This document shows positions 41,495 to 62,873 of a DNA stretch of 64,000 bases, piece by piece. Numbering within the stretch: the first letter of the stretch is position 1; every line of letters starts with the position of its first letter. The notes under the pieces were generated by a model. It was not told where the DNA came from. It saw only the letters and a list, made by a program, of their open reading frames with translations, and made no database searches. Source of the DNA: Desulfobacteraceae bacterium (lineage in GTDB: Bacteria; Desulfobacterota; Desulfobacteria; Desulfobacterales; JACKCP01); assembly GCA_050253255.1 (NCBI GenBank), contig JBFWJK010000001.1, positions 2,165 to 66,164 of the forward strand, written 5' to 3'. The translations under genes were made by a program, and so were the position numbers.

Positions 41495-41505
41495 TGGAGG
41501 TTTTT

Positions 41506-42441: not shown

Positions 42442-42448
42442 AAAACTG

Positions 42449-42481: not shown

Positions 42482-42495
42482 TAAAAGTTTATTAA

Positions 42496-43905: not shown

Positions 43906-43923
43906 TTTTTTAATTCAACAAAG

Positions 43924-44415
43924 TTATGTGTTTTGAAAAAGGAAGGACAGCTGGTTTCTTTTTTCATTACCCATATCAATGAATTTTACACCGAATCCGG
44001 GAATGATAATTTTTTTTTCGGGCATACCAGTATTTGACCAAACAACTTTTGCATCAAGTGAAATATTGTTTTTGTTTTTTATGAAAAAATTTATCTGTAC
44101 TTTTTCATTAACTTCAATTCTTTTTCTGCATATAATAAACGCACCCATAAAGCTTATGTCTTTTGTCCGACCTTTGAATATTTCCTCTGATCCATTGTTT
44201 CTTTTTATTTCAACAGTCAGATTTTTCATTTTTCTGTCGTAAAGTCTTTTGTTAATCGATTGTCCTGAGTTGTTTTCGATTTCTTCGTCCTTTTCATTTT
44301 CGGGGCTTTGGAGGGATAAAAATTTTTTTATCCCTTCAATCAGATTGGAGATAAGCCAGATAAATATTACGAGAAAAAAAATATAGGTAAATATTTCTAA
44401 AATTAGAGAATTCAT
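43924..44415 (-). CDS. Membrane-anchored PilZ-domain protein
   Basis: N-terminal TM helix (LILEIFTYIFFLVIFIWLI), then RLYDRK...DISFMGAFI (PilZ RxxxR / DxSxxG). ATG at 44415 has an AGGAGA RBS and is preferred over the TTG at 44463. Confidence 0.7.
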   Translation of the reverse strand: MNSLILEIFTYIFFLVIFIWLISNLIEGIKKFLSLQSPENEKDEEIENNSGQSINKRLYDRKMKNLTVEIKRNNGSEEIFKGRTKDISFMGAFIICRKRIEVNEKVQINFFIKNKNNISLDAKVVWSNTGMPEKKIIIPGFGVKFIDMGNEKRNQLSFLFQNT

Positions 44416-47192: not shown

Positions 47193-48329
47193 TTGGAAAA
47201 TATTTTATTCTCGTTTATAGAAAACACAGGATTGTATTATCTGACATACAAGCATTTTATAATGCTTTTGATAGCGTTTTTTTTTCTTTATCTGGGCATT
47301 TTCAGAAAATATGAACCACTGCTTCTGGTGCCCATATCCTTTGGAATGATAATAGGGAATCTTCCGGCTCCTGCATCAATGTCGCTTGGGGTATATAATG
47401 AAGGAAGCGTTCTTTATTATCTTTATCAGGGAGTATCTCAGGGAGTATATCCTCCTCTGATATTTATCGGCATAGGCGCAATGGCAGATTTTTCCTATAT
47501 ACTTTCAAGGCCGGTACTTATTTTGCTTGGAGCGGCTGCACAGGCTGGAATTTTCATTACTTTTTTAGGGGCATATTTTCTTGGCTTTTCTCCCCAGGAA
47601 TCTGCTGCAATAGGGATAATCGGAGGAGCGGACGGGCCGACAGCAATTTTTCTTACTTCAAAGCTTGCTCCCGAACTTATAGGTCCTATAGCTGTTGCAG
47701 CTTATTCGTATATGGCTCTTGTCCCGGTAATTCAGCCTCCGGTAATGAAGCTTCTCACCAGTAAAAAAGAGAGAATGATTACAATGAGGTCTGATTTCAG
47801 GGAAATTTCAAAAAAGGAAAAAGTTATTTTTCCGGTTGCAGCTCTCGTTCTTTGCTGTCTTATAGCTCCGGGTGCTCTTCCTCTGCTTGGAATGCTCTTT
47901 CTTGGAAACCTGTTAAAAGAAGCGGAAGTGACAAACAGACTTGCTGAAGCAGCAAAAGGTCCGTTAATCGATATAGTAACCATTCTTCTTGGAATAAGCG
48001 TAGGGGCAAGCACTCAGGCAGATGTTTTTCTCACAAAAAAATCTGTTGTAATATTTATATTGGGAGTTATTTCCTTTGCAATTGCAACAATGTGCGGAAT
48101 TTTGTTTGCAAAATTGATGAATATGTTTTTAAAAGAAAAGATAAATCCATTGATCGGTGCTGCAGGGGTCTCAGCAGTACCTGACTCTGCAAGGGTTGCT
48201 CAGATGGTTGCATCAAAGGAAAATCCGGGAAACTATATTTTAATGCATGCAATGGCACCAAATATTTCCGGTGTAATTGGCTCGGCCATAGCAGCCGGAG
48301 TTATGTGGAGTCTGATTGGTAAGTTTTAA
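47193..48329 (+). CDS. Sodium-ion-translocating decarboxylase beta subunit (OadB/GcdB/MmdB family)
   Basis: 378 aa polytopic protein. N-terminus and EPLLLVPISFGMIIGNLP, GIIGGADGPTAIF and AGVSAVPDSARV match the OadB family. TTG start. Confidence 0.9.
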   Translation: MENILFSFIENTGLYYLTYKHFIMLLIAFFFLYLGIFRKYEPLLLVPISFGMIIGNLPAPASMSLGVYNEGSVLYYLYQGVSQGVYPPLIFIGIGAMADFSYILSRPVLILLGAAAQAGIFITFLGAYFLGFSPQESAAIGIIGGADGPTAIFLTSKLAPELIGPIAVAAYSYMALVPVIQPPVMKLLTSKKERMITMRSDFREISKKEKVIFPVAALVLCCLIAPGALPLLGMLFLGNLLKEAEVTNRLAEAAKGPLIDIVTILLGISVGASTQADVFLTKKSVVIFILGVISFAIATMCGILFAKLMNMFLKEKINPLIGAAGVSAVPDSARVAQMVASKENPGNYILMHAMAPNISGVIGSAIAAGVMWSLIGKF

Positions 48330-48367
48330 ATATAAACATAAAAATAAATAAGTCTGGAGGATTTTAA

Positions 48368-49132
48368 ATGATTAAAGAAAGAATTGAAGACAATATTCTT
48401 ATAGCTGTTTTAACAGACGGTAAAACTAACTCAATTGATTTTGAAACTTTAAAGCAGATCGATGCCTGCGTTGAAAAAGTCAATAATGATGACAATATAA
48501 AAGGTCTTGTTCTGACAGGGGAAGGAAAGTTTTTTTCAAGCGGATTTAATCTTCCAATGTTTCTTGGATTCAAGGATGTGGATGAAGCAGTTGATTTTTT
48601 CAATCAGGAAGAAGAAATGCTTGTCAACTATTTCATGTGCAAAAAACCTGTTGTATGTGCAATGAACGGACATTCTGCTGCTGCAGGCATGATCTTTGCC
48701 ATGGCTTCAGATTACAGAATTGTTTCAGATCATCCAAAAATCAAGCTTGGAATGAGTGAAATAAAAATCGGACTTCCTCTTACTCTTGCACAGTCGCAGA
48801 TAATGAGGTTTGGTCTTGATACAGATAAAAAATTCAGAGATATAATGTATTTTGGTGAAATGTACGGACCTGAAAAATCAAAGGAAATGGGTCTTGTTGA
48901 TGAGGTTGTTGCTGCAGATGAGCTTCTCAACAGAGCCAAGGCTATTGTCTCCTTATGGATTGATACTCCAAACCGTCCTTTCATAAGAATGAAAGAAGTT
49001 CTTAAAAAAGAATTTGCGGAAAAAATTCAGAAAAGACTCAAGGAAGAAAACTGGCAGGAGGGAATGACCTGCTTTTTTGAAAAAGATGTAAGAGATATTC
49101 TTTCTTTTGTTCAGGCAGGTCTTGATAGATAA
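48368..49132 (+). CDS. Enoyl-CoA hydratase/isomerase (crotonase) family protein
   Basis: 254 aa. VLTGEGKFFSSGFNL, PVVCAMNGHSAAAGMIFAMASDYRI and GLVDEVV motifs. Confidence 0.85.
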   Translation: MIKERIEDNILIAVLTDGKTNSIDFETLKQIDACVEKVNNDDNIKGLVLTGEGKFFSSGFNLPMFLGFKDVDEAVDFFNQEEEMLVNYFMCKKPVVCAMNGHSAAAGMIFAMASDYRIVSDHPKIKLGMSEIKIGLPLTLAQSQIMRFGLDTDKKFRDIMYFGEMYGPEKSKEMGLVDEVVAADELLNRAKAIVSLWIDTPNRPFIRMKEVLKKEFAEKIQKRLKEENWQEGMTCFFEKDVRDILSFVQAGLDR

Positions 49133-49827: not shown

Positions 49828-51531
49828 ATGATTCTTTTCAATCCCAAAGAGCACAACATAAAATACAGTGATGAAAAAACACGAGACATGATGCAGAAGG
49901 TAATTGACTATTTTGAAGACAAGGGTCTCAAGTCAATTAAAAAAGACTGGCATGAAAAGGTCTGGAACCATGATTTTGTAAAATTCATGAAAGAAAACCA
50001 GGTCATGGCAACTCTTATGACTCCTTCAGGATACGGAGCTGAAGATTCAAGATGGGATACTTTCAGGAACTCCATGTTTGCTGAAGTTTCCGCATTTTAC
50101 GGGATCACATACTGGTATACATTCCAGGTTTCAATGCTTGGACTTGGACCAATCTGGATGGGATCGAACGAAGAAGTAAAAAACAAGACAGCAAAACTTC
50201 TTCAGGACGGTGAAGTATTTGCTTTCGGACTTTCAGAAAAAGAGCACGGAGCTGACATCTATTCATCTGATATGATGCTTTATCCTCAGGAAGACGGAAC
50301 ATACAAGGCAAACGGGGATAAGTACTACATTGGAAACGGAAACGAAGCAGCCATTGCTTCAACATTTGGTAAAATTGCAGACAGCGGTGAATATGTATTT
50401 TTTGCTGCAAACAGCAAGCATGAAAAATATGAGTGCGTTAAAAATACAGTTAATGAGCAAAATTATGTTGCTGAGTATGTTCTTCACGATTATCCGATCA
50501 CAGAAGCAGACATAATGGAAAAAGGCCCTAAAGCCTGGGATAACATGCTCAACACCATCAACGTATGTAAATTCAACCTTGGATGGGGTTCTCTTGGACT
50601 TGCAACCCATGCATTCTATGAAGCCATCTCCCATGCTGCGGGAAGAAATCTTTACGGCAAATATGTAACAGACTTTCCACATGTAAAAAGAATTTTTGTG
50701 GATTCCTACAGCCGTCTTATTGCAATGAAAGTATTTTCTGAAAGAGCAATAGACTACATGAGATCAGGAAGCGAAAAAGACAGAAGATATCTTCTTTTCA
50801 ACCCAATGGTTAAGATGAAGGTTACAAGAGAAGGTGAAGGGGTTGTTCAGGCTCTGTGGGATGTTATTGCAGCCAAGGGATTTGAGGCAGAGCCTTTCTT
50901 TGAAATTGCGGCCCATGAAACCCCAATGCTTCCAAAACTTGAAGGTACTGTTCATGTGAATATGGCTCTTATCGTAAAATTTATGAACAACTACCTCTTT
51001 AATCCTGGTGAGTTCCCTGAAATCGGAAAAAGACACGATACTGTAAATGACGATTTTCTTTTCAATCAGGGACCAACAAAAGGTCTTGGTTCAATTCAGT
51101 TCCATGATTACAGCAAGGCTTATGATTCAGCTGATACTCCAAACCTTGCAGTTTTCAAAGAGCAGATAAAGGCATTCAGAAATTTCCTTATCAAGGCAAC
51201 TCCTGATAAAAATCAGGCAAAAGATATTGATTATCTTCTTAATCTCGGAGATATTTTCTGCCTTATTCCTTATGGTCAGCTTATCCTTGAAAACAAGGAT
51301 CATATGGGAGTAACAGATGAGATGCTCGATCAGATTTTTGATTTCATGATAAGAGATTTTTCAAAATATGCTACAGATCTTATGATGAAGCCAAGCAACA
51401 GTGATGATCAGAGAGAGCTTGCAAAAGCAATCTTGAGATCACCTGTTCCAAACCCGGAAAGATTCAATAAAATCTGGGATGAAGTATACAGCCTTAAAGA
51501 TGCATACAGAATGAAAGATCAGGATTTTTAA
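49828..51531 (+). CDS. Long-form acyl-CoA dehydrogenase family protein
   Basis: 567 aa from the ATG at 49828 (GGGGAG RBS). ACAD middle-domain pattern (FAFGLSEKEHGADIYSSDM...YYIGNG). Substrate unknown. Confidence 0.8.
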   Translation: MILFNPKEHNIKYSDEKTRDMMQKVIDYFEDKGLKSIKKDWHEKVWNHDFVKFMKENQVMATLMTPSGYGAEDSRWDTFRNSMFAEVSAFYGITYWYTFQVSMLGLGPIWMGSNEEVKNKTAKLLQDGEVFAFGLSEKEHGADIYSSDMMLYPQEDGTYKANGDKYYIGNGNEAAIASTFGKIADSGEYVFFAANSKHEKYECVKNTVNEQNYVAEYVLHDYPITEADIMEKGPKAWDNMLNTINVCKFNLGWGSLGLATHAFYEAISHAAGRNLYGKYVTDFPHVKRIFVDSYSRLIAMKVFSERAIDYMRSGSEKDRRYLLFNPMVKMKVTREGEGVVQALWDVIAAKGFEAEPFFEIAAHETPMLPKLEGTVHVNMALIVKFMNNYLFNPGEFPEIGKRHDTVNDDFLFNQGPTKGLGSIQFHDYSKAYDSADTPNLAVFKEQIKAFRNFLIKATPDKNQAKDIDYLLNLGDIFCLIPYGQLILENKDHMGVTDEMLDQIFDFMIRDFSKYATDLMMKPSNSDDQRELAKAILRSPVPNPERFNKIWDEVYSLKDAYRMKDQDF

Positions 51532-51554
51532 GTAAATCTTCTCCATAAAGAAAT

Positions 51555-51581
51555 AAGGCTTCTGAAAAAATCAGAAGCCTT
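51555..51581 (+). terminator. Terminator hairpin after the acyl-CoA dehydrogenase gene
   Basis: AAGGCTTCTGA (51555-51565) pairs with TCAGAAGCCTT (51571-51581), followed by ATTTACTTT. Confidence 0.6.
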
Positions 51582-51613
51582 ATTTACTTTGCCTGTGGTT
51601 AGCAATTAATGCC

Positions 51614-52510
51614 TTATTCCTGAAAAAGATTTGTTCTTGCAAGATTTCTGACCGCAAGAACAGCAGGGTGCTTAAGACGCCGCTCATGCGAGACAGCGAA
51701 AAATTTTATGGTTTCAACCCTTGAGCTTCCTAAGACCATAACCCCGTACTGTCTGACAACTTCCTCTGCAATTACAGACGGAACCGGAAAAACCCCAAGC
51801 CCTGAATGTCCAAAAGCCTTAAGAAGAGAAGTGTCTTCAAATTCTGCAACAATTTTGGGTCTGAGCTGATTTTTTGAAAGCCACTGGTTTACAACAGCTC
51901 TTAAAGATGTTCCTTCTGAGGGCATAAGGAAAGGTGCGTTTTGAAGTGATTGCGGAAAATTTTCCTTTAAAGCTTTGTAAAGAGAAGGACTAGCGCAAAA
52001 ACTCACACCTGACTGCCCCAGCTCATGATTGTAAGCCTTTACTCCAAGTTCCCTGGGCAGAGTCTGATCTGCAATTACAAGGTCAAGATGATGAATTGCA
52101 AGCTCGCCGAAAAGCCGGTCAGGCTTGTCATTATGGCAGATAAGCCGGATTGGCTCTGAAAGATTAACTGCTGCACTCAGCAGCTGATATGCCATGGATT
52201 TTGGAACAGTATCCACAACTCCGACTCTGAAAAAAAAACCTTCACTTACAGCACCGTCCCTTACAAGAACTTCTATTTCATTGCCTATCTGAAAGATGTC
52301 ATCGGCACGGGATAAAACAACTTCGCCCGCCTGTGTAAGTTCAAGCCTTTTCCCTACCCTTCTGAAAAGATGGGTATCCAGTGATTTTTCCAGTTCACCA
52401 ACCTGGTGACTGATAGTCTGGGGAGTTATATTGAGCCGTTCGGAAGCGCGGATTACTCCCCCTGATTTAACGACATTCCAGAAATAATAAAGCTGTTTGT
52501 AGTTTAACAT
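51614..52510 (-). CDS. LysR-family transcriptional regulator
   Basis: 298 aa. HTH N-terminus LNYKQLYYFWNVVKSGGVIRASERLNITPQTISHQVGELE plus the LysR substrate-binding domain. It is divergent from purE. Confidence 0.9.
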   Translation of the reverse strand: MLNYKQLYYFWNVVKSGGVIRASERLNITPQTISHQVGELEKSLDTHLFRRVGKRLELTQAGEVVLSRADDIFQIGNEIEVLVRDGAVSEGFFFRVGVVDTVPKSMAYQLLSAAVNLSEPIRLICHNDKPDRLFGELAIHHLDLVIADQTLPRELGVKAYNHELGQSGVSFCASPSLYKALKENFPQSLQNAPFLMPSEGTSLRAVVNQWLSKNQLRPKIVAEFEDTSLLKAFGHSGLGVFPVPSVIAEEVVRQYGVMVLGSSRVETIKFFAVSHERRLKHPAVLAVRNLARTNLFQE

Positions 52511-52714
52511 TTTGTGAACCCGTTAGTAATTATCAGTTTATATCGAACAATATATCAAAATAATACGACTTTTATTTTATATTGGCAAGGTGTATAAAAA
52601 TTTTCTCAAAACCTAAGAATGCTAATAAACAAGGTATACAGCATTTTAAAAGCTGAATGTCGAAAAATATCGAAAAGACATGAAACTTATTATCAGTACA
52701 ATGAAAGGATTGAG

Positions 52715-53410
52715 ATGGAGTTAATTGTCATAGTTTTAATTTATGGATCAGCAGCTTTATTTTTAAGTTCAAATCTCTGTCTTTCTGCCGTTTTAAGCGG
52801 CATATCAAAGTCTGAAAGCTTTTCATGCGGGTGCGGCTCTTCCGGAACCGAAAAAAAGGATATGAAACCATCCCCGGAACAGGAAATGCCGGCCTGCATG
52901 AAAAACTCAAATACAAAGACCCCACTGGTTGGAATAATCATGGGTTCCAGATCAGACTGGGAAACAATGATCCACGCTGCCAAAACACTTGAAAAGCTCG
53001 GTATTTCCCATGAAGTGGAAATTGTTTCAGCACACCGGACTCCTGACAGACTTTTTTCCTATGTGGAATCTGCGGAAGAAAGAGGAATGGATATCATTAT
53101 TGCAGGTGCAGGCGGTGCAGCCCATCTGCCGGGTATGGCTGCATCAAAATGCATTCTTCCTGTACTTGGAGTGCCCGTTCAGTCAAAGGCTTTGAATGGG
53201 ATGGATTCCCTTTTGTCCATAGTGCAGATGCCGGCCGGAATTCCAGTTGGAACTCTTGCAATAGGAAGAGCCGGAGCTGTGAATGCAGCTCTTCTTGCTG
53301 CAGGCATGCTTGGAAGATTTTATCCGGAAATTCGTCAGTCTCTTATTGATTACAGGAAAAATCAAACCGAGGAAGTACTGGCACAAAGTGATCCTGGAAG
53401 GGATTACTGA
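52715..53410 (+). CDS. purE: N5-carboxyaminoimidazole ribonucleotide mutase (class I PurE), start uncertain
   Basis: The core [13 protein letters not shown]...[11 protein letters not shown]...[16 protein letters not shown]...VLGVPV...[17 protein letters not shown] is nearly co-linear with E. coli PurE. The frame is open back to 52619. Candidate starts are 52715 (best RBS, GAAAGGA), 52862, 52886 and 52898. Confidence 0.85.
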
Positions 53411-54498
53411 TGAAAACAGGTATACTTGGCGGAGGCCAGCTTGCAGGAATGCTTGTCATGGCAGGAATACCCCTTGGGTTTGATTTTACAGTACTTGCAC
53501 CGGACAGCGAGTCCTGCGCAGCACAGTATGGAAAACTGCTGCGGTCAGATTACAGTGATAAAAAGGCTCTGCATGATCTGGCGGACTGGTCTGATCTGAT
53601 AACCTTTGAGTTTGAAAATATTCCGGCTGAGTCAATAAATTATCTTGAGCGGTATACTATTGTACGCCCTGGGCTAAAAGCACTCAAGACGGCCCAGGAC
53701 AGACTCCATGAAAAAGAATTTTTTTCCGGTCTTGGAATACCCTGTGTACCTTTTTATCCGGTAAACTCTCTAAAAGATCTTTATAAGGCTGCTGATATAA
53801 TTGGACTTCCTGCAGTATTAAAATGCCGCACCCATGGATATGACGGAAAAGGTCAGATTGTTTTACGTCATATTGAAGAATCTGAATCAGCCTTTAATCT
53901 TCTTGGCGGTCAGCCGGGAATTCTTGAAAAGCTTATTGATTTTGACAGAGAGATTTCAGTTGTTGCTGCCCGGAGCATATCCGGGGAAACAGCTTTCTAC
54001 ACTATATCAGAAAACATTCATCATAATGGAATTCTTCGTCTTGCCATGAGTCATCCTTGTGATCCTGTTCAGTCAAGGGCTGAATTCTATGCCGGACTTC
54101 TGCTGGAGAAGCTCAATTATGCAGGAGTGCTGGCTCTTGAATTTTTTCAGACTGGAGACAGTCTGATTGCAAATGAATACGCTCCAAGGGTTCATAATTC
54201 AGGACACTGGACCATAGAAGGAGCAAAGACAAGTCAGTTTGAAAATCATTTAAGGGCCATATCAGGGATGCGCCTTGGCTCAACAGCTCTGAAGAGTGTT
54301 GCAGCCACTGTAAACCTTATTGGTTCTGTTCCGGATAGAGCACAGATACCTGGAAACAGCAATATTTATCTGCATGATTACGGCAAGGCCCCAAGACCAG
54401 GTAGGAAAGTGGGCCATATCACTGTATGTGCAGACAACATGAGGGATCTTGGTAAGCTTGTGCCGGAATTTTTAATCCGGCAGGAACTGATGAAGTGA
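53410..54498 (+). CDS. purK: N5-carboxyaminoimidazole ribonucleotide synthase (ATP-grasp)
   Basis: 362 aa. GILGGGQLAGML N-terminus, ATP-grasp core (GYDGKGQ), and NEYAPRVHNSGHWTIEG. Its start overlaps the purE stop (TGATG). Confidence 0.9.
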   Translation: MKTGILGGGQLAGMLVMAGIPLGFDFTVLAPDSESCAAQYGKLLRSDYSDKKALHDLADWSDLITFEFENIPAESINYLERYTIVRPGLKALKTAQDRLHEKEFFSGLGIPCVPFYPVNSLKDLYKAADIIGLPAVLKCRTHGYDGKGQIVLRHIEESESAFNLLGGQPGILEKLIDFDREISVVAARSISGETAFYTISENIHHNGILRLAMSHPCDPVQSRAEFYAGLLLEKLNYAGVLALEFFQTGDSLIANEYAPRVHNSGHWTIEGAKTSQFENHLRAISGMRLGSTALKSVAATVNLIGSVPDRAQIPGNSNIYLHDYGKAPRPGRKVGHITVCADNMRDLGKLVPEFLIRQELMK

Positions 54499-54549
54499 TT
54501 GTTTTTTCCTGAATTGGTCATAATCAGAATTTTAAAAAGGAGGAGATGG

Positions 54550-55134
54550 ATGAGAGATTCAACTTACAAGGTAGCTGCAGGACCGGAAGGTTACTTACCG
54601 CCTGCTGCCGCTGTAATGGGTGTTGAGCTTCCCGACCCGGGACAGGCTATTATGGAAGGTGAGTGTGTTGATCAGGATACTGCCATGAAGGCAATAGCCA
54701 GCAAGCTTGTTTCTGCTGAAAATCCGGTTTTTTTCCCGGGCCCGCTTATTTTATGGGACTGGAAACCCGGTGTAGCGGAAAAGGCGGCGGCACTTAAAGC
54801 TCTTGCCGAAGCAGTGGGTGCGAAGATGATACCTATGCCAGATTATCGGCCAAAATATCCGATGATTAATCCTGCTATTGAAGTCAATCCGAATCATCCG
54901 AACCTGACAATAGTCCATAACAAGATAGATGTATGCCTGTTTATTGGTGTTCACTGTCATTACGCAAACATTGCATTGAAGATAATCAGGGGAGGAACAG
55001 ACTGCTATACAATTGCGGTTTGTGCCGAGGCAGGTCATGAGGAAGCCATGATATCACTGCGTGACGCAGGTATCTGTGAACTTCAGCGTTTGCGTGAACT
55101 TGTAATTGAACTGAAAGGCGGGATGAGCAGATGA
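54550..55134 (+). CDS. Unknown ~194-aa protein translationally coupled to the OFOR alpha gene (possible extra OFOR subunit)
   Basis: ATG at 54550 is preceded by AGGAGG, and the stop overlaps the alpha-subunit ATG (ATGA 55131-55134). From memory it loosely resembles CdhB (ACS/CODH epsilon)-type or DHS-like folds (ENPVFFPGP...DVCLFIGVHCHY). Unverified. Confidence 0.5.
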   Translation: MRDSTYKVAAGPEGYLPPAAAVMGVELPDPGQAIMEGECVDQDTAMKAIASKLVSAENPVFFPGPLILWDWKPGVAEKAAALKALAEAVGAKMIPMPDYRPKYPMINPAIEVNPNHPNLTIVHNKIDVCLFIGVHCHYANIALKIIRGGTDCYTIAVCAEAGHEEAMISLRDAGICELQRLRELVIELKGGMSR

Positions 55135-56270
55135 TAGAACAGAAAATTGTCGATCCGGATTACCTTTTTTTTGAGGCGCAAAGAACAAGTCAGTACATTA
55201 CCGGAAGTGAGGCTGTGAGAGAAGCTATAAAAAGAGCCAATGTGGATATGGCCATAGCCTATCCAATCACTCCCCAGTCTGAAAGCATGCATCTGGTTGG
55301 AGACATTTATGCAGAAGGCTATGTAAAGGAATATTTGAGAGGTGAAAACGAGTTTGCAGTAATGTCGGCTGTTGCAGGTGCATCAATGGCAGGAGTGAGG
55401 GTTTTCACGGCAACAGGAGGTCCGGGAACCATGAGGGCCTTTGAAGTATTTCCAACCTGGGCAGGAGCAAGGCTTCCTGTTGTATGTGCCTTCATGACCC
55501 GGGGAATCAACTCTCCTCTTACAATTCAGCCTGACACCATTGAAATGGCATATCTCCTTGAGACAGGTATTTTAATGCTCCATGCTGAAAATGCACAGGA
55601 TCTGCATGATATGCTTTTAATGGCCTTTATGGTGGCTGAAAAAACAGACGTGCATATTCCTGTGGGAGTGTTTGCAGACGGTTTTTTTGTAACCCATACA
55701 AGGGACAGGGTTGATATTCTTCCTGAGGACGTAAAGCTTCCGGGATATGATCCTTATACAGCCCCGGTTCCTGTCATGGATATGGAAAATGTTCCTGTAA
55801 GACAGATGCGCGATCCCTTTGTAATGAAGAGTAACTTCATGAGCTATGCCTGTCATGCTTCCTGGCAGCAGGAGATAGATGCGGCAGCAGAACGCTCACG
55901 TAAATACCTGAGACAGTATCTTGGCTCTCTTATAGATGTTGAAAATGAGGACTCAGACATCCTTGTCATAACTTCTGGTACAGCAGTGAGCCAGAGTCGT
56001 GAAGCCATAATTACAGCCCGTGAACAGGGACTTGATGCGGGTCTTGTGAAGATAAAAACAATACGCCCTTTCCCGGGAGAAGAAATTCGCGCTCTTGCAT
56101 CAAAGGCAAAGAAAATAATTGTACCCGAATTCAACAGGGCAGGCTGGCTTGCAAAGGAAATCCGCAATGTTATAGACGAACCCCGCAAGGTTGTCGGTGC
56201 ACCAAGAGTTTTCGGAGGAATGACAATGCCGCCGGAGCTTATACTCGATGAAATAAGGAGGATCAGATAA
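55131..56270 (+). CDS. 2-oxoacid:ferredoxin oxidoreductase alpha subunit
   Basis: 379 aa. GSEAV...AIAYPITPQSE...FTATGGPGT motifs of Por/Vor/Kor alpha subunits. Confidence 0.9.
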   Translation: MIEQKIVDPDYLFFEAQRTSQYITGSEAVREAIKRANVDMAIAYPITPQSESMHLVGDIYAEGYVKEYLRGENEFAVMSAVAGASMAGVRVFTATGGPGTMRAFEVFPTWAGARLPVVCAFMTRGINSPLTIQPDTIEMAYLLETGILMLHAENAQDLHDMLLMAFMVAEKTDVHIPVGVFADGFFVTHTRDRVDILPEDVKLPGYDPYTAPVPVMDMENVPVRQMRDPFVMKSNFMSYACHASWQQEIDAAAERSRKYLRQYLGSLIDVENEDSDILVITSGTAVSQSREAIITAREQGLDAGLVKIKTIRPFPGEEIRALASKAKKIIVPEFNRAGWLAKEIRNVIDEPRKVVGAPRVFGGMTMPPELILDEIRRIR

Positions 56271-57124
56271 TGAAAACCGGAATGCTTAAAATATCTCCGG
56301 GATTTGAGGATATCATGCCTGAGGAATACCGGGAACTTGTGGACAACGGTCCCTACGGTAAAAACTACGGCATAGGTGATCTTGGATCTTTCAAGGAGCT
56401 TCTTGAAGAACATCCCCTTTGTGCAGGCTGCGGCCTTGCCCTTTCCTTAAGACTTACACTTGCTTCACTTCCCATGCCTGAAGAAACCGTGATTGTAGGT
56501 TCAACAGGATGCAGTGCCCTTGCCTTTCCACAGGTGGCCCTTCACAATATTCATTCTCTGTTTGGTAACCAGAATGCTGTTGCTACCGGAGTGAAGCGTG
56601 CCTTAAAGCTTCGTTTCCCGGACAAGGAAAAAGATGTGGTTGTTATTGCAGGAGACGGAGCCACGGCAGACATAGGTCTTGATATGGTTATGCAGTCCTG
56701 GCTGAGAAGGGAGAACATCACCACAATAATGCTTGATAATGAGGCCTATGCAAACACAGGCGGTCAGGAAAGCGGAATGTCCATGCCTGGAACCGTTCTT
56801 AATATGGCGCCAACCGGTAAAAAATTTCCCAAGCTTTCCCTTCCTGAAATTGCACATACTTCAGGCTGTGACTATGTAGCAGCAGTTTCACCTGCAAAGC
56901 CAAAACAGCTTGCAAAGGCTGTCAGGCGTGCAATTCTTGTGGCCCGTAAAATCGGACCCACCTATGTACAGATATTCAGCCCGTGTCCGACAAATTACAA
57001 GTTAAACCCCAAAGAAACCGTTTCTGTAATCAGACAGAGGGAAAAAGACGGCCTTTATCAGACAAAAGAGTTTGTATCAGAGGAAGCACAGGCATTTCTC
57101 AATACTGTTGAGGAGAAAAAATGA
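56270..57124 (+). CDS. 2-oxoacid:ferredoxin oxidoreductase beta (TPP-binding) subunit
   Basis: 284 aa. CAGCG, GSTGCS and the TPP motif IAGDGATADIGLD...LDNEAYANTGGQ. The start overlaps the alpha stop (TAATG). Confidence 0.9.
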   Translation: MKTGMLKISPGFEDIMPEEYRELVDNGPYGKNYGIGDLGSFKELLEEHPLCAGCGLALSLRLTLASLPMPEETVIVGSTGCSALAFPQVALHNIHSLFGNQNAVATGVKRALKLRFPDKEKDVVVIAGDGATADIGLDMVMQSWLRRENITTIMLDNEAYANTGGQESGMSMPGTVLNMAPTGKKFPKLSLPEIAHTSGCDYVAAVSPAKPKQLAKAVRRAILVARKIGPTYVQIFSPCPTNYKLNPKETVSVIRQREKDGLYQTKEFVSEEAQAFLNTVEEKK

Positions 57125-57810
57125 AATCAATAGAAAAAAACTTTATACGTATGTCCGGCCTTGGAGGCCAGGGTGCAGTGACAGCGGCACATATACTTGG
57201 AAGCGCAGCCAATAAAGACGGACTGGAAAGTACTGTCAATCCCTTTTTCGGTGCTGAAAAGCGTCTTGCTCCTGCGGAAAGTTATGTGCGCATATCTTCA
57301 CAAAAGGTTTATGAAAAGGGAGAGGTGCTTTATCCCAATACAATAATGATTTTTCATCCCCATGTCATCACCATGGGCAAGTGCTACACCATGCCTTTTT
57401 TTGACGGTCTTCAGGAAGGCGGAGTTCTGCTTATAAATTCTGATGAACCGCTTTCTCTTCGTGATGAGGATCTCAGACTTCTTGCAGATCTGAAAGCAAA
57501 AATCTACTACGTGCCTGCAACAAAAATTGCAACCGAAGTTGCAGGATCAGAGCTTTCTACAAACATAGCAATGCTTGGAGGACTTTACGGTATAAAAAAA
57601 CTTACCTCGATTAAATCTCTTAAAGAATCCATGATGGAGCGTTTTGGCGGAGGAAAGTTTGTAGCTTCGGGAAGTACAGCAGCTCTTGATGATGCAGTAA
57701 AGGGAAAATTTGCAAAGGTAAGTCAGATGATTGAGAAAAATATGGAGCTGATTGAAGCAGCAGGCGCGGCTTTGACTGAGTTTTGCCCAGCAGAAGAAAA
57801 GGAGGACTGA
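57121..57810 (+). CDS. 2-oxoacid:ferredoxin oxidoreductase gamma subunit
   Basis: 229 aa. GLGGQGAVTAAHILGSAA, typical of gamma subunits. The start overlaps the beta stop (ATGA). Confidence 0.85.
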   Translation: MKSIEKNFIRMSGLGGQGAVTAAHILGSAANKDGLESTVNPFFGAEKRLAPAESYVRISSQKVYEKGEVLYPNTIMIFHPHVITMGKCYTMPFFDGLQEGGVLLINSDEPLSLRDEDLRLLADLKAKIYYVPATKIATEVAGSELSTNIAMLGGLYGIKKLTSIKSLKESMMERFGGGKFVASGSTAALDDAVKGKFAKVSQMIEKNMELIEAAGAALTEFCPAEEKED

Positions 57811-57813
57811 TTT

Positions 57814-58002
57814 ATGTATTTATCAGCCAGAGTTGATAAAGAAAAGTGTATTGGATGCAGACTTTGCATTACAAGTTGTCCGGAACCCAATGTATTTAAA
57901 TTTCTGCCGGAAGAAAAGCTTGTGGAAGTAAATGACAGCCGATGCAAGGCATGCGGTCTGTGCACCACAGTTTGTCCAAAGGACGCCCTGAAAATCAGCT
58001 GA
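57814..58002 (+). CDS. 2-oxoacid:ferredoxin oxidoreductase delta subunit (2x[4Fe-4S] ferredoxin)
   Basis: 62 aa. CIGCRLCITSCP and CKACGLCTTVCP. It starts 3 nt after the gamma stop. Confidence 0.8.
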   Translation: MYLSARVDKEKCIGCRLCITSCPEPNVFKFLPEEKLVEVNDSRCKACGLCTTVCPKDALKIS

Positions 58003-58038
58003 TCAGTCAGTTTATAAGTGTGTTTTTATTTGTTCCGG

Positions 58039-58058
58039 GGGCGGCACTGATGCCGCCC
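58039..58058 (+). terminator. GC-rich hairpin between the two OFOR gene sets (weak terminator)
   Basis: GGGCGGCA (58039-58046) pairs with TGCCGCCC (58051-58058). Only TT follows. Confidence 0.35.
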
Positions 58059-58127
58059 TTCAAAAATTTGAATGCACATTAATTTAATGCTGCTTTTATA
58101 AGTGCAGCTGGGGTTAGGAGACTCAAC

Positions 58128-59297
58128 ATGTGTTCAGATAATAATTTTGACGATCCTGGTGCAATGCTGCTTCACGGCCCGCGCACCAGGGCCTTTATTA
58201 CAGGAAGTGAAGCTGTCTGCGAGGCTGTGAAACGTGCCTGTGTTGACATGGCAATTGCTTATCCCATTACTCCCCAGTCAGAGAGTATGCATCTGATCGG
58301 TGATCTGTATGCAAAGGGTTATATAAAAGACTATTACAGGGCTGAAAATGAATTTGCGGTAATGGCCGCAGTTCACGGTGCAGCTCTTGGGGGCGGAAGG
58401 GTATTTACGGCAACAAGCGGACCCGGAACGCTCAGGGCCATGGAAATGTTTCCTGTCTGGGCAGGAGCAAGGCAGCCCATAGTCTGTGCATTCATGTGCC
58501 GGGGTGTTTCTCTTCCTCCTTCAATTCAGCCTGAAAATATTGAAATGGGAATGCTTCTGGATACAGGAATGCTCATGTTCCACGCAGAAAACGGTCAGGA
58601 TTTTCATGACATGATTCTGCAGGCCTATCTTATTGCGGAACAGACAGATGTTCACCTTCCTGCAGGTGTTTTTGCAGACGGCTTTTTTGTAACCCATACA
58701 AGAGAAGAAATGATGCTTCCTCCGGAAGACTTCAGGCTTTTGCCCTATGATTCAAATCTTGCTCCGGTTCCAACCTTTGATATGGAAACTCCGCCTATGC
58801 GAATTACAAGAGATCCTCTGCTTAACAAAAGCAATTTCATAAGCAGCAGTGCCAATGCAAGCTGGCATCAGGAGATTCTTGCTGCGGCAGAAAGGGCAAG
58901 AAAGCATATAAGGCGTTTCATGGGAGGACTTATTGAAGTTGAAAATCCAGGTTCAAAGGTATTTATCGCTGCTTCAGGAACAGCTGTTTCACAGTCAAGG
59001 GAAGCCATCCGTATTCTTCAAGGAGAAGGAATTGATGCAGGGCTTATCAAGATAAAATCCATTCGTCCTTTTCCTGAACAGGAACTCAAGGATGCAGTTG
59101 AAGGAGCAGATCACATAATAGTTCCGGAATTCAATGCCGGAGGCTGGCTTGCAAGGGAGATCAGGGCCTCTCTGGATCGAAATACCAGAGTAACAGCCGG
59201 GCCAAGGGTTTTCGGGGGTATGACCATGCCTCCCTGGCTGATTGCAGATGAAGTTAAATCGGCTATTCAGGCCGCACAGTTAAAGGGAGGGAACTGA
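58128..59297 (+). CDS. 2-oxoacid:ferredoxin oxidoreductase alpha subunit, second paralogue
   Basis: 389 aa, co-linear with the 55131-56270 product (by eye roughly two thirds identical, e.g. DMAIAYPITPQSESMHL, GVFADGFFVTHTR). AGGAG RBS. Confidence 0.9.
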   Translation: MCSDNNFDDPGAMLLHGPRTRAFITGSEAVCEAVKRACVDMAIAYPITPQSESMHLIGDLYAKGYIKDYYRAENEFAVMAAVHGAALGGGRVFTATSGPGTLRAMEMFPVWAGARQPIVCAFMCRGVSLPPSIQPENIEMGMLLDTGMLMFHAENGQDFHDMILQAYLIAEQTDVHLPAGVFADGFFVTHTREEMMLPPEDFRLLPYDSNLAPVPTFDMETPPMRITRDPLLNKSNFISSSANASWHQEILAAAERARKHIRRFMGGLIEVENPGSKVFIAASGTAVSQSREAIRILQGEGIDAGLIKIKSIRPFPEQELKDAVEGADHIIVPEFNAGGWLAREIRASLDRNTRVTAGPRVFGGMTMPPWLIADEVKSAIQAAQLKGGN

Positions 59298-59893
59298 TAA
59301 TGTCAAAAAAAATAATAACTCCGGTCCCTTCTCTGGCAGATATTCTGCCTGATGATTACAAGGCTCTTGTATCAGACGGTCCACACGGCAGATCTCTTGG
59401 AGTCAAAGATCTTGGAAGCTTCAAGGAAATTACCGAGGAACACCCCCACTGTGCAGGATGCGGTGTGTCCTTAGGTGTGCGTCTTTGTCTGGCTTCACTT
59501 CCTTTACCTGAGGATACAATAGTTGTCGGCACTCCAGGGTGCTCATTTTTTGCATTGTCACAGTCTGCTCTGAATTATTCAAATACTGCTTTCGGCAATC
59601 AGAACTCGGTTGCATCAGGTCTTAAGCGAATGCTGAAGATCCGCTATCCGGAAAGAATAAAGGACGTTGTTGTCATTGCCGGAGACGGAGGCATAGCTGA
59701 TATCGGTCTTGACATGACCCTTCATTCCTGGCTGAGAAAAGAAAATATTACAACCATAATGCTTGATAATGAGGTTTACGGAAATACCGGCGGTCAGGAA
59801 AGCGGAATGTCACCCCATGGTCAGGTTCTGAACATGGCTCCAAAGGGTAAAAACTTTGAAAAGATTCCCATGTTTGAAATGGCAAAGACATCT

Positions 59894-59902
59894 GGCTGCG
59901 CC
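59894..59902. repeat. Left copy of the 9-bp target-site duplication GGCTGCGCC
   Basis: Identical 9-mer immediately flanks both IS ends (59894-59902 and 62320-62328). Confidence 0.85.
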
Positions 59903-62319
59903 CTGCCCTTTACCCACAATTTTTTACTCAGGGATATTCTTTCAAGGAATATCCCTCGCACATAATCTGTAAAAGATTATAGCCTTTCCAAATTAGTTGA
60001 TGTCCAACTGGAGGATCACTTTTCCTGTTCAAATATCCTCCAAGTTTTCCCACCATAACTACCATTTCACCAAGGCTGACAGGTTTTTTTAAGTTTTTTT
60101 TTGAGCATAACCTTGAAGTACTTTTATTTCAATATCGGAAAATAATATTTCAGGTGAAAGCTCCGGAGTTTGCCTTCCCAAAAGAGTCATGAGCATAATT
60201 CGCCAGGCAACTACAATATTTATTGCAATAGCTCTTTTTAATCTTGCTGCTTTTTTCATTGAAAGCTCTTCGATTTTACAACCTGATTTTAAAACTCTAT
60301 GCCAATCTTCAATACGCCATCTCAAACAATACCATTTTATGCATTCCAATGCTGTTTCTGGAGATTCTATATTAATTGTTGTCAATAAAAACCATTCTAC
60401 AGGGTCAATATTTTCAGGTGGATTTTCTTCCCTTAAATGTATTGCCCAAAGTTCTACAGATGTTTTACTTTTGCTGTATGACGGTGGTTTTAAGCTTATT
60501 TTTTCAAAACTTACCAATGCTTTTGCTGTTCGTCTTTCTTTTTTGGGTTTTGCCTTTTGAGTTCCTCTTCTTAATCTCTGACTTTGACGAGGTATCTCTA
60601 TTTCAATGGAAGTTGATGCTGGGGTATTTCTTAATTTATCAAAAAGTTTATTATCTCCATTTATTTTTCTGTCAAAGGCAGCTCTTACAAGCAAATCAAT
60701 TTTAATGCATTCATTTCTATGAGTATCAAAAAGTTCATAAAAATCTCCTTCTCTATCCATTACATTAACCAAAGCTGTTTCAGGAGTAAGTTTTTTTATT
60801 GACATGCAGTCACGGATGCCTTTTATCCATGAAAATATTTTTTTTGTTTCTATGGAACTGTTTCTTTCTTCATTTTTAGTTCTTTTTATTTTTTGGATTT
60901 TTGGCGATGTTATTTCTGAGCTTAATATCCCAAGAGGTAGTCCATCAGTTGTCACTGCCATGGTTGAATGCATGTGAAAGCCTTTTGTAACGGCTTTTGT
61001 CTGATTTTTGCCGATTTCTCCAAGTCCGGTGCAGTTATTGAGATTATCATAATTAATTTTGGTTCCGTCCTGAATACACAAAACGGTTTTTTGAGCTTTA
61101 ATTCTTTGGATTGTTCTTGTTCTGTGAGGCTTTAATATATTTTCAACTGAAACTGCTGAATCATCTGGTTTGTCAATCAACCTGTAAAAACCTTTTACTT
61201 TTTTCCAGTCCCCTCCAACACATGCACTGTATGAAGCAGAGGGGTTTTTGTATATTTCTTCAGCAGCCTGAATAAGTCTTTCATCCAGGCGTTTATCTCC
61301 AATATCTACTCCTGAAAATTCCTCTTTTGCCCAGTCTTCAACATTAAAGGATTCAATAGGCAGGGGCTGTAAATATTGAGGTGCCTTTGTACCAAATTTT
61401 TCCCTGAAAAAATCATCAAGCTTGTAAATATAAATATCTTTGATTGTCTCTTTGTATTCGCATAATGAATCCTGACGGCCCCGGCCTTTTGTTTTTCCAA
61501 CAAGCTCCCAGTTTGCAGCTTTGTAGCAAGTTCCTGAATGGCTTGTTGTATCAACAAAACTTTCAAGAAGTAATGGTCTGTAATTGTATTTTTTATAAAA
61601 ATCTTCAGGAAACTGCCTTACTGCCATTCCAAGAATATGGGAGGCCAGATTTTTACATTTTACACACGGCCTGATTAAAAATCTGCTTAAATTAACAATA
61701 TAATGAAGTAATGTCTGACGCTTTGGCCAATCCCAGCCAACCCATTTATCTCTGTCTTCAACATGTAAAGCAGCAGAGCTGAAAGCAAGGCCTCCAAGAC
61801 ATCCATGGTCTGAACTTATGAGATACTTTATCTGTCTGCCTACAAGGTGACCTGCTTTTCTGGGATGTTCGTTTATCATCAGCTCATTCCAGATACACCT
61901 TTGCTCAGTGGTTTCTACAGGAATTAATTTGAGACTTTTTATTTTGCCTGCTGTATCAGGCACATTCTGAGGTTCAGGCACACTTTTGTCCAAACGAAGA
62001 TTTACTTTCTCTGTTTTATTAGTTTTTGGCTTGAAATTGTAAAAAGTTTCCAGACCAGCCTGCTTTTCAATCGTTGACAGAGCTTTTATGCAGCCGGCTG
62101 CCTGCATTTTACCCGCAGGATCAAAAAAATTATACTCCTTACAGAGATAATGTGCTAATTTAGCTCTGCTTTTCCCATGTTCTGTTTTAAGAAGCTCTTT
62201 TATGTGAGCAATAACTTTAGCCTGTGATAATGTTTTTTTGATTTCATTTTGTTTTTTCATAATCACAGATTAAATTATTTTTTTTACACAGTCCAGACTT
62301 TTTTTGGGGTAAAGGGCAG
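59903..62319 (-). mobile_element. IS4-family (Tn5/IS50-like) insertion sequence, 2417 bp
   Basis: Terminal inverted repeats: CTGCCCTTTACCC at 59903-59915 and its reverse complement at 62307-62319 (13/13, with partial extension). A 9-bp TSD as for IS50-type elements. One transposase gene fills the element. Confidence 0.88.
60089..62266 (-). CDS. Tn5-like DDE transposase with ~310-aa N-terminal extra domain; C-terminus in the -1 frame
   Basis: aa ~310-725 are co-linear with recalled Tn5 Tnp (WAKEEFSGVDIGDKRLDERL..., YCLRWRIEDWHRVLKSGCKIEE = YREK region). The ORF stops right after an A9 run. The -1 frame continues 57 codons to TGA at 59928-59930 and encodes the conserved ...GKLGGYLNRKSDPPVGHQLIWKGYNLLQ tail. 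Confidence 0.85.
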   Translation of the reverse strand: MIMKKQNEIKKTLSQAKVIAHIKELLKTEHGKSRAKLAHYLCKEYNFFDPAGKMQAAGCIKALSTIEKQAGLETFYNFKPKTNKTEKVNLRLDKSVPEPQNVPDTAGKIKSLKLIPVETTEQRCIWNELMINEHPRKAGHLVGRQIKYLISSDHGCLGGLAFSSAALHVEDRDKWVGWDWPKRQTLLHYIVNLSRFLIRPCVKCKNLASHILGMAVRQFPEDFYKKYNYRPLLLESFVDTTSHSGTCYKAANWELVGKTKGRGRQDSLCEYKETIKDIYIYKLDDFFREKFGTKAPQYLQPLPIESFNVEDWAKEEFSGVDIGDKRLDERLIQAAEEIYKNPSASYSACVGGDWKKVKGFYRLIDKPDDSAVSVENILKPHRTRTIQRIKAQKTVLCIQDGTKINYDNLNNCTGLGEIGKNQTKAVTKGFHMHSTMAVTTDGLPLGILSSEITSPKIQKIKRTKNEERNSSIETKKIFSWIKGIRDCMSIKKLTPETALVNVMDREGDFYELFDTHRNECIKIDLLVRAAFDRKINGDNKLFDKLRNTPASTSIEIEIPRQSQRLRRGTQKAKPKKERRTAKALVSFEKISLKPPSYSKSKTSVELWAIHLREENPPENIDPVEWFLLTTINIESPETALECIKWYCLRWRIEDWHRVLKSGCKIEELSMKKAARLKRAIAINIVVAWRIMLMTLLGRQTPELSPEILFSDIEIKVLQGYAQKKT

Positions 62320-62328
62320 GGCTGCGCC
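62320..62328. repeat. Right copy of the 9-bp target-site duplication GGCTGCGCC
   Basis: See the left copy at 59894-59902. Confidence 0.85.
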
Positions 62329-62613
62329 TACGGAGCCAGAGTAACCATTGCAGATTCAAAAAAACTTGGCGATGCTGTCTGTAAAGCGGTTTTGATTGCA
62401 AGGGAAATTGGACCGACCTATGTTCAGATATTTACACCCTGCCCCACAAATATGAAGTTTGATCCTTCAGACACCATAAAAGTTGCACGTGAAGCAAAAA
62501 ATGGGGCCTATGCTTTTGAGGAGTTTGTTTCTGATGAGGCTGGTAAGTTTTTGAAATCTGTAAATGCTGAAGAGAAAACTGCATAGGATAAGAATTTTCA
62601 AATAAAATATTTG

Positions 62614-62684
62614 ACCTAAATTGAGCGTTTCATATTTTGAAAGTAACAAATACTCAATGAATCAAGCTTATTATATTTAAAAAT
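62614..62684 (+). repeat. Copy c of the recurring intergenic element (orphan copy)
   Basis: ACCTAAATTGAGCGTTTCATATTTT... has 55/71 identities with 26141-26211. It lies 28 nt after the interrupted beta gene's stop, and no tracked ORF follows on either strand. Confidence 0.55.
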
Positions 62685-62873
62685 ATGAAACCCTGTGTTC
62701 TTTCCAATTTTGCTGCATCTATGGCGTTAAATTGCATCACGCATAGTAAAAGTATAGCCTGATACAATTGTCGTTATATGCAGCAAACTTGAAAATCGCT
62801 CCATTCAGGTTTGATTATAGGCTTTTTTGTCAAAATACTGTTATGTCCCCTTCAACAAGTGAAGGGGGGTAAT

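Follow-up and report, generated by a model that had tools for sequence, protein, structure and literature searches.

We analyzed a 64,000-nucleotide (nt) stretch of a Desulfobacteraceae bacterium genome (contig JBFWJK010000001.1; the window) and found that the region beginning at position 51614 is probably a single chromosomal operon under divergent LysR control. It unites ordinary purE and purK genes with genes for a five-subunit 2-oxoacid:ferredoxin oxidoreductase (OFOR), whose second beta gene, beta2, is broken by an insertion sequence (IS). Based on gene context, we consider it reasonably probable that this is a LysR-regulated inorganic-carbon assimilation operon. The genes can be assigned to known families and are tightly coupled, the OFOR genes keep the delta-alpha-beta-gamma-epsilon order of related clusters, and the linkage to purEK recurs in other loci.

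All coordinates below are those of the window; gene identities were assigned with Pfam and NCBIfam scans, and junctions were checked base by base. Every gene of the cluster delimited in a preliminary description of this DNA lies at the position given there, according to the open reading frame (ORF) list and both family databases. From 51614, the minus-strand lysR gene is followed on the plus strand by purE, purK, delta, alpha1, beta1, gamma, epsilon, alpha2, and beta2, with the following features (N5-CAIR, N5-carboxyaminoimidazole ribonucleotide; TPP, thiamine pyrophosphate; aa, amino acids):

51614 to 52510, minus strand: LysR-type regulator, divergent from purE (HTH_1 and LysR_substrate in Pfam)
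52511 to 52714, no strand: lysR-purE control region, with a box of ~60 nt at ~52531 to 52600 and lysR promoter-like hexamers
52715 to 53410, plus strand: purE, predicted class I N5-CAIR mutase (PF00731, 208 bits; TIGR01162, 211.8 bits)
53410 to 54498, plus strand: purK, predicted N5-CAIR synthetase (preATP-grasp, ATP-grasp, and PurK_C domains)
54550 to 55134, plus strand: OFOR delta subunit, CdhB-like, of the ForD/PorD type (PF02552, E 5e-41)
55131 to 56270, plus strand: OFOR alpha1 (POR_N and PFOR_II)
56270 to 57124, plus strand: OFOR beta1, predicted to bind TPP and a [4Fe-4S] cluster (TPP_enzyme_C)
57121 to 57810, plus strand: OFOR gamma (PF01558; TIGR02175, 110 bits against a cut-off of 81)
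57814 to 58002, plus strand: OFOR epsilon, 62 aa, ferredoxin-like with two predicted [4Fe-4S] clusters (Fer4 families)
58037 to 58060, plus strand: GC-rich stem-loop with a 10-bp stem in the epsilon-alpha2 spacer
58128 to 59297, plus strand: OFOR alpha2, a paralogue of alpha1 (POR_N and PFOR_II)
59300 to 59902, plus strand: N-terminal part of OFOR beta2, cut by the IS (shortened TPP_enzyme_C match)
59903 to 62319, minus strand: IS4/Tn5-like insertion sequence (transposase at 60089 to 62266)
62320 to 62577, plus strand: C-terminal remnant of OFOR beta2 (tblastn match to beta residues 199 to 283, 55% identity)

The genes are closely spaced throughout. The purE stop and purK start share the sequence TGATG (53408 to 53412), delta overlaps alpha1 in ATGA (55131 to 55134), alpha1 meets beta1 in TAATG (56268 to 56272), beta1 overlaps gamma in ATGA (57121 to 57124), and gamma is separated from epsilon by 3 nt. 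The 51-nt purK-delta spacer contains a strong ribosome-binding site (RBS), AAAGGAGGAG. It holds no terminator-like site and no stable hairpin, and its predicted fold is no more stable than those of shuffled controls (z = +0.84). No terminator, the possible break between purEK and the OFOR genes that the preliminary description had raised, was found between purK and delta. That description, correct in its gene positions and in all of its junctions, had reported seven codirectional genes ending at 58002. All seven are present, but the string continues past 58002 into alpha2 and beta2, and this second pair and the IS insertion had been overlooked.

The assignment of the OFOR to the five-subunit class depends on the 194-aa product of ORF 54550-55134, which matches the Pfam family of the CO dehydrogenase beta/acetyl-CoA synthase epsilon subunit, CdhB. 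We detected 1,824 homologues of this protein. Identity is 67 to 90% among homologues from Desulfobacterota and Bacillota, 63 to 90% between Desulfobacterota, Bacillota, and other phyla of the anaerobe clade, and 55 to 62% over ~190 aa to loci of Nitrospirota, Nitrospinota, and Aquificaceae. A scan that took a single genome for each species yielded 592 loci, and 80 of these were retained; in essentially all of those with enough flank, alpha, beta, gamma, and ferredoxin genes come after the delta homologue. The preliminary description had noted a loose CdhB-type resemblance and proposed the ORF as a candidate fifth subunit that should be linked to OFOR genes elsewhere, and all three points held. 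Its portrayal of an unknown ORF added to a four-subunit enzyme did not, given that delta is the already described hallmark of the class (PMC10052474). The name epsilon, which it had used for the extra subunit, belongs in Aquificaceae usage to the ferredoxin subunit, and the CdhB-like subunit is called delta. Thus, by homology and gene neighborhood, we identify ORF 54550-55134 as the known delta subunit that defines five-subunit OFORs and not as a new protein.

Structure prediction agreed with this family assignment. The best fold matches of the AlphaFold model of delta (pLDDT 68) were the CdhB epsilon chains 9c0s_C and 3cf4_G of the Methanosarcina CO dehydrogenase/acetyl-CoA synthase (CODH/ACS; E ~1e-6, TM ~0.5), with structural alignments at only 14 to 16% identity, followed by middle domains of thiamine diphosphate enzymes. 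Sequence and profile searches of the PDB with delta returned no relative, and so no solved structure of the five-subunit class is apparent. Across 85 delta sequences (Desulfobacterota, Bacillota, Nitrospirota, Nitrospinota, Aquificaceae, and other groups), there is little or no variation at residues H116, H135-C136-H137, C152, C158, and H163 or in the motifs DYRPKYP and NPNHPNLTI. The invariant His and Cys residues suggest that delta, usually treated as a scaffold, has a site for a metal or ligand.

The remaining subunits are those expected of an OFOR. The best solved relative of alpha1 is the alpha chain of a pyruvate:ferredoxin oxidoreductase (PFOR; 9bt4_B, E 5e-40). The beta1 translation contains the TPP motif GDGATADIG...DNEAYANTGGQ and the cluster-binding cysteines C51, C54, C81, and C239, and epsilon carries two CxxCxxCxxxCP motifs, CIGCRLCITSCP and CKACGLCTTVCP. 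The CdhB-like gene is therefore clustered with alpha, beta, gamma, and ferredoxin-like genes, as is typical of the five-subunit class, and the delta-alpha-beta-gamma-epsilon order is the same in loci L046 to L082 and in L067. In a neighbor-joining (NJ) tree, the alphas of Nitrospirota/Nitrospinota and Aquificaceae fall outside the alpha1/alpha2 pair. Neither alpha1-beta1 nor alpha2-beta2 could be labeled as a pyruvate (POR) or 2-oxoglutarate (OGOR) ferredoxin oxidoreductase: equivalog cut-offs were missed, the two alphas are sisters in the NJ tree, and subunit sizes are ambiguous. The preliminary description had looked to an alpha/beta phylogeny for the substrate, and the tree placed neither alpha1 nor alpha2 with a labeled enzyme.

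Downstream of epsilon, a 125-nt spacer leads to alpha2, which is 62% identical to alpha1 and belongs to a conserved alpha2 clade in the NJ tree. The beta2 frame is broken at 59902 and resumes at 62320 to 62577, on either side of a 2,417-bp element whose 16-nt terminal inverted repeats are perfect and which is flanked by a ~9- to 10-bp target duplication. Its 725-aa transposase has a Tn5-type DNA-binding domain (PF14706) and a DruA-like N-terminal domain (PF14236). By transposase domain, inverted repeats, and target duplication, the element is IS4/Tn5-like. Three JGI metagenome contigs (L001 to L003) and the metagenome-assembled genome (MAG) “Desulfobacteraceae bacterium HK-STAS-DESU-1” match the window at ~98% identity and lack an IS at this site, which makes the insertion recent and strain specific. 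In L001 to L003, beta2 is uninterrupted (275 to 288 aa), whereas the MAG contig ends inside the gene. Collinearity with L001 to L003 and with L006 breaks at 59902 and resumes with L001 to L003 at 62320. Based on the interrupted frame, beta2 is predicted to be knocked out in the window strain.

The second catalytic pair is not peculiar to this genome. For comparisons among loci, we defined a close clade by a delta identity of ≥62.5%. Both alpha-beta pairs are present in 17 of its 44 loci, with the alpha1 type only in 20 and the alpha2 type only in 4. Judging by gene order, the form with seven genes, delta-alpha1-beta1-gamma-epsilon-alpha2-beta2, is a conserved one. With two catalytic pairs and a single delta-gamma-epsilon set, its gene content suggests that the accessory subunits are shared. 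The epsilon-alpha2 spacer folds with z = -2.4, and hairpins of differing sequence occupy the same spacer in L006, L086, L092, L093, L025, and L008. The hairpin is thus conserved as structure and not as sequence, with no clear U-tract after it, and it may act as an intraoperon attenuator or a transcript-stabilizing element.

The two purine genes at the head of the operon are unremarkable in sequence. PurE exceeds the TIGR01162 equivalog cut-off of 149.6 bits (211.8 bits), and its translation has the class I loops SAHRTP and AGGAAHLPG. PurK matches PF22660, PF02222, and PF17769 and scores 397.7 bits against a cut-off of 326 for NF004679. By sequence, the two are a bona fide class I N5-CAIR mutase and a bona fide N5-CAIR synthetase. 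The closest PurKs that are not linked to an OFOR are housekeeping enzymes at ~55 to 58% identity.

The 5' end of purE deserves closer description. The listed ORF (52619 to 53410, 263 aa) is overextended at its 5' end, as the PurE domain begins at about residue 104. The catalytic domain starts at ~52925, with a shorter alternative start at ATG 52862. An ATG at 52715, with the RBS AAAGGA 5 nt upstream, would add a possible N-terminal extension (52715 to 52924), a hydrophobic segment (...SFSCG). The proteins of L006 and L093 (MNLIIILFLFGGLAVVLL...SFPCG) have a conserved counterpart of this extension in the same frame, which Desulfobotulus mexicanus and L092 lack. PurE may therefore be membrane anchored in the window lineage.

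We next asked how widely purEK accompanies this type of OFOR, counting purE-purK within 10 kb of the cluster. Among the 44 close-clade loci, purEK was found in 14, the bicarbonate transporter gene sbtA in 9, a PII-like gene in 10, an MpsC-like gene in 16, and any of these in 27. The corresponding numbers for 39 more distant loci, mostly from Nitrospirota and Nitrospinota, were 1, 1, 1, 0, and 1. The purEK genes are placed in at least five ways: upstream and codirectional with the OFOR genes; upstream with SbtA-PII inserted between purK and delta; downstream in purK-purE order or as one fused protein; downstream on the opposite strand; and, in an actinobacterial MAG, between two complete five-gene clusters. 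L057 reads LysR | SbtA-delta-alpha-beta-gamma-epsilon-purE-purK-delta-alpha-beta-gamma-epsilon-PII. In the cultured isolate D. mexicanus, a minus-strand lysR gene faces purE-purK-delta-alpha-beta-gamma-epsilon-alpha2-beta2 with a 4-nt purK/delta overlap, and L093, a Thermodesulfobacteriota MAG, matches this layout up to the end of its contig, which falls within beta2. Metagenome contig L092 has Sua5/TsaC, then SbtA-PII-purE-purK-delta-alpha-beta-gamma-epsilon-alpha2-beta2, with 4-nt overlaps at PII/purE, purE/purK, and purK/delta. In Bacillota, L021 and L034 have the order purK-purE beside the OFOR cluster, and L024 has a 545-aa PurK-PurE fusion there (15633 to 17201).

The linked purine genes are themselves diverse. 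All linked proteins that were scored, five PurKs and two PurEs (L012, L024, L007, and L057), lie above the equivalog cut-offs. The linked PurKs represent at least five lineages at ≤45% identity, and the adjoining alpha1 proteins are 70 to 84% identical; between the window and L007, for example, identity is 84% for alpha1 and 32% for PurK. Because the linked PurKs come from different lineages, the linkage arose more than once. The OFOR cluster evidently moved between phyla and was repeatedly joined to differing purEK pairs, and without selection for the linkage this pattern would be hard to account for. The preliminary description had called for a survey of purEK linkage, which is both conserved and recurrent, and had allowed that purEK might be the ordinary purine genes of the genome. 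They are ordinary by equivalog scores. It had also noted no described purEK-OFOR operon, and our literature search likewise found no paper on such an operon or on five-subunit OFORs in these anaerobes.

Several genes found in the same neighborhoods handle bicarbonate. SbtA/SbtB is a Na+-dependent bicarbonate importer with a PII-like regulator, MpsC belongs to a system for uptake of dissolved inorganic carbon (DIC), Sua5/TsaC consumes bicarbonate and ATP, and the SulP family includes bicarbonate transporters. In L092, Sua5/TsaC (3110 to 4102) lies directly before SbtA. The D. mexicanus operon (L086) is flanked by three SulP-family genes or fragments with Sulfate_transp and STAS domains (7032 to 7756, 17206 to 18783, and 19593 to 21146), and in an Ignavibacteriae-labeled MAG (L048), a SulP gene directly follows the cluster.

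These data bear on an alternative in which a mobile OFOR cluster landed behind a housekeeping LysR-purEK divergon and is expressed by read-through without adaptive meaning. The OFOR varies far less across phyla than PurK does, as would be consistent with lateral transfer, an IS sits within the cluster, purE and purK are ordinary by sequence, and the nearest unlinked PurKs are housekeeping enzymes. A neutral event, however, would have to be repeated across at least five arrangements and at least five PurK lineages in Desulfobacterota, Bacillota, and one actinobacterium, whereas a random gene pair is expected within 10 kb at a few per thousand. Genes that use or transport bicarbonate (SbtA/PII and Sua5) lie in the same neighborhoods, and the 4-nt purK/delta overlap in two taxa indicates an integrated operon. 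We therefore regard chance juxtaposition as unlikely; its main support comes from the ordinary nature of purEK and from the stand-alone LysR-purEK unit described below.

The best NCBIfam model for the regulator is NhaR (NF008284), at 204.5 bits and under the 219-bit cut-off; the protein is, by its domains, a LysR-family member of uncertain subfamily. It is 78% identical to the LysR of D. mexicanus and 52% identical to that of Desulfomicrobium baculatum, both of which are likewise encoded divergently from purEK. An alignment of the control regions of the window, D. mexicanus, the L093 MAG, and D. baculatum revealed the invariant pattern TCAGTTT..CGAACAAT..ATC.A...AATACGA..CTT. The box at 52531 to 52600 is near-invariant in these four taxa though their regulators share only 52 to 84% identity. 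It adjoins the lysR start and overlaps lysR promoter-like hexamers; the minus strand of the lysR-purE region has a promoter-like TTGCCA-17-TATTAT. From this conservation, the box is likely the LysR operator. No riboswitch or leader RNA was recognized ahead of purE, as an Rfam search of 51000 to 63000 gave no match at E ≤ 1.

The LysR-purEK unit stands alone in D. baculatum, and the box is present in all four taxa; therefore, the unit predates its union with the OFOR. As a separate observation, D. baculatum (L088) encodes an 832-aa fused OFOR-like protein (POR_N, TPP_enzyme_C, and POR; 12057 to 14555) 1 kb downstream of LysR-purEK, placing a second, different kind of OFOR beside purEK.

We propose that the LysR protein would turn on purEK and the OFOR together under inorganic-carbon limitation. 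The OFOR would act as an acyl-CoA carboxylating synthase, forming pyruvate and/or 2-oxoglutarate, and would be coexpressed with the ATP- and bicarbonate-dependent carboxylation of 5-aminoimidazole ribonucleotide, which would be needed specifically when CO2 is scarce. Where beta2 is intact, alpha2-beta2 would share delta, gamma, and epsilon with alpha1-beta1. At high CO2, cells can do without PurK, which consumes bicarbonate and ATP. In a recent review, purK is viewed as an adaptation to low CO2 (PMC10880623). The recurrent pairing with purEK in unrelated anaerobes, often with a bicarbonate transporter, points to a common response to scarce inorganic carbon. The preliminary description had been divided between a carboxylation-oriented module and a regulatory link between purine synthesis and 2-oxoacid metabolism; the SbtA/PII, MpsC, and Sua5 neighbors favor the former, as a function that we infer.

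Several observations weigh against this proposal. D. baculatum has the LysR-purEK divergon without a five-subunit OFOR, and so the regulator may sense a purine-related signal and not inorganic carbon. Thirty of the 44 close-clade loci are without purEK in the available flank, and genes for SbtA, PII, and MpsC are all missing from the window itself. The direction of catalysis is read from neighboring genes only. Neither alpha nor beta reached any NCBIfam equivalog cut-off, including those for a defined substrate class, and the sister clades of alpha1 and alpha2 group with neither labeled POR nor labeled OGOR enzymes. Finally, activated sludge, the source of the named MAG closest to the window, is not a habitat with evident carbon limitation. 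Soda-lake or serpentinite sites are the source of many relatives; an alkaliphile-specific module was rejected given the origin of the closest MAG, and we retain the alkaliphile trend only as anecdotal.

The OFOR reaction is reversible, and the enzyme could instead be a robust, oxygen-tolerant isoenzyme that oxidizes pyruvate, 2-oxoglutarate, or some other 2-oxoacid derived from fatty acids or amino acids, with purEK as unrelated passengers. Five-subunit OFORs have been discussed mainly as oxygen-tolerant variants (bioRxiv 10.64898/2026.09.02.748891), and an acyl-CoA dehydrogenase gene, an enoyl-CoA hydratase-like ORF (named by translation), and a gene for an OAD-beta subunit lie upstream. These catabolic genes are, however, beyond lysR and a MarR-like ORF (also named by translation) and are not conserved with the cluster, whose recurrent neighbors import or consume bicarbonate and include no catabolic genes. 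The characterized five-subunit enzymes are carboxylating enzymes of the reductive tricarboxylic acid (rTCA) cycle (PMC10052474). We consider the catabolic interpretation improbable, more so than chance juxtaposition.

A third alternative is a carboxylation metabolon in which PurK, a possibly membrane-anchored PurE, and delta pass ATP-activated bicarbonate or CO2 to the OFOR. It would accommodate the translational coupling of purK to delta in two taxa (D. mexicanus and L092), the hydrophobic PurE extension shared by the window, L006, and L093, and the invariant delta His and Cys residues. However, the PurE and PurK proteins tested (window, L007, L012, L024, and L057) are canonical with no sign of neofunctionalization, most such OFOR clusters, including nearly all of those in Nitrospirota, Nitrospinota, and Aquificaceae, are without adjacent purEK, and D. 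mexicanus and L092 lack the PurE extension. We know of no chemistry that moves CO2 from N5-CAIR to another enzyme. Such a metabolon seems to us very improbable. Equally remote is ATP-assisted CO2 delivery, by which bicarbonate captured by membrane-tethered PurK/PurE and/or the delta His/Cys site would feed the TPP active site; if it did operate, delta would be a CO2- or bicarbonate-handling module and not a passive scaffold.

The wider window adds some genomic context. In the segment from 24000 to 44000, dnaN (27561) and gyrB (28700) lie just past the cumulative GC-skew minimum (~24 to 26 kb), and yidC, jag, and mnmE are at ~40 to 44 kb; these positions suggest that the window spans the replication origin region. 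The OFOR operon is ~25 to 30 kb from this apparent chromosomal origin, on the leading strand. A genomic island was considered from the raised G+C content at 52 to 60 kb and rejected, as codon positions 1 and 2 account for most of the rise. G+C content at third codon positions (GC3) is 0.35 to 0.41 in the cluster and 0.29 to 0.35 in its neighbors, a rise small enough that the evidence for an island is weak. The OAD_beta gene (Na+-translocating decarboxylase beta subunit, E 1e-151; 47193 to 49132) is ~4 kb upstream of lysR, adjoins the enoyl-CoA hydratase-like ORF, and is near the acyl-CoA dehydrogenase gene. It encodes another (de)carboxylase, and its linkage to the cluster is not conserved.

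The type of enzyme and the identity of the ORF as the hallmark delta subunit were already known. New are a large clade of five-subunit OFORs in strict anaerobes, the seven-gene architecture with two catalytic pairs, and the recurrent operonic union with purEK and, in relatives, with sbtAB. So large and conserved a clade of these enzymes in strict anaerobes argues that the CdhB-like subunit serves a purpose other than oxygen tolerance, which would surprise specialists who see five-subunit OFORs as an oxygen adaptation of rTCA autotrophs. The repeated, independent joining of purEK and SbtA/SbtB to these clusters yields a testable hypothesis, that of a scarce-inorganic-carbon regulon in anaerobes. 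It extends to users of the Wood-Ljungdahl pathway, organisms with no known DIC transporters according to a 2024 review (PMC10880623). The hypothesis is directly testable because D. mexicanus is cultured and has the same operon. In addition, the presence of two alpha-beta pairs for one delta-gamma-epsilon set makes possible subunit sharing a matter of interest for the engineering of CO2-fixing OFORs.

The closest known systems are the For (forDABGE) and Por (porEDABG) enzymes of Hydrogenobacter thermophilus and Aquifex aeolicus, which comprise the same five gene types, including a CdhB-like delta; the class is also predicted in Nitrospira, Nitrospina, Leptospirillum, and some Campylobacterota. 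In A. aeolicus, the CdhB-like delta subunits of OGOR (aq_1166) and PFOR (aq_1192) were identified by mass spectrometry (MS) in activity-stained bands (PMC10052474), and epsilon is a ferredoxin-like subunit (PMC10052474; cf. PMC2607301). The window shares the gene order of the for (OGOR) cluster, the beta TPP motif with its four cysteines, and the epsilon ferredoxin with two [4Fe-4S] clusters. The delta-alpha-beta-gamma-epsilon ORFs of an Aquificaceae MAG (L067) encode 240, 389, 292, 230, and 74 aa, sizes that, by our own mass estimate, fit the MS-verified masses of the Aquifex OGOR subunits (PMC10052474). The For/Por hosts are microaerophilic or aerobic rTCA autotrophs, whereas the window type belongs to strict-anaerobe lineages (Desulfobacterota and many Bacillota). 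Unlike the two complete For and Por clusters, the window has one delta-gamma-epsilon set plus a second alpha-beta pair, and only the window cluster is joined to purEK in one operon. The Aquificaceae delta has 240 aa with a C-terminal tail, and the window delta has 194 aa without the tail.

CdhB, the epsilon subunit of the archaeal CODH/acetyl-CoA decarbonylase/synthase complex, shares its Pfam family (PF02552) and its fold with the window delta. Its partner is CODH alpha, whereas the partners of delta would be OFOR subunits; neither the window nor the annotated related loci have a CODH or ACS gene next to delta. The fused protein of L024 resembles ADE2, the fused PurK-PurE of fungi and plants, whereas purE and purK of the window are unfused and follow the order that is usual in bacteria.

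In regulatory terms, the operon resembles the DIC toolkits of autotrophs. Cyanobacterial SbtA/SbtB DIC regulons are under the LysR-type regulators CmpR and CcmR. DIC transporters are colocated with OFOR genes in rTCA autotrophs (PMC13147460). These toolkits and the operons described here both colocate an SbtA and PII-like pair, a LysR gene, and a carboxylase, with the transporter present in relatives and not in the window, whose LysR differs in being NhaR-like, below the cut-off of that model. The study of rTCA and reversed oxidative TCA (roTCA) autotrophs, which does not cover these anaerobe lineages, makes no mention of purK (PMC13147460), and our literature search on DIC toolkits found no colocation of purEK with OFOR genes.

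The use of a single accessory set by two catalytic pairs has a parallel in Pyrococcus and Thermococcus, in which POR and the 2-ketoisovalerate enzyme VOR reportedly share one gamma gene (Kletzin and Adams 1996). Both systems combine two paralogous catalytic modules with a single accessory-subunit copy. They differ in that, judging by gene content, the window enzyme would share three subunits, delta, gamma, and epsilon, with a delta that is CdhB-like.

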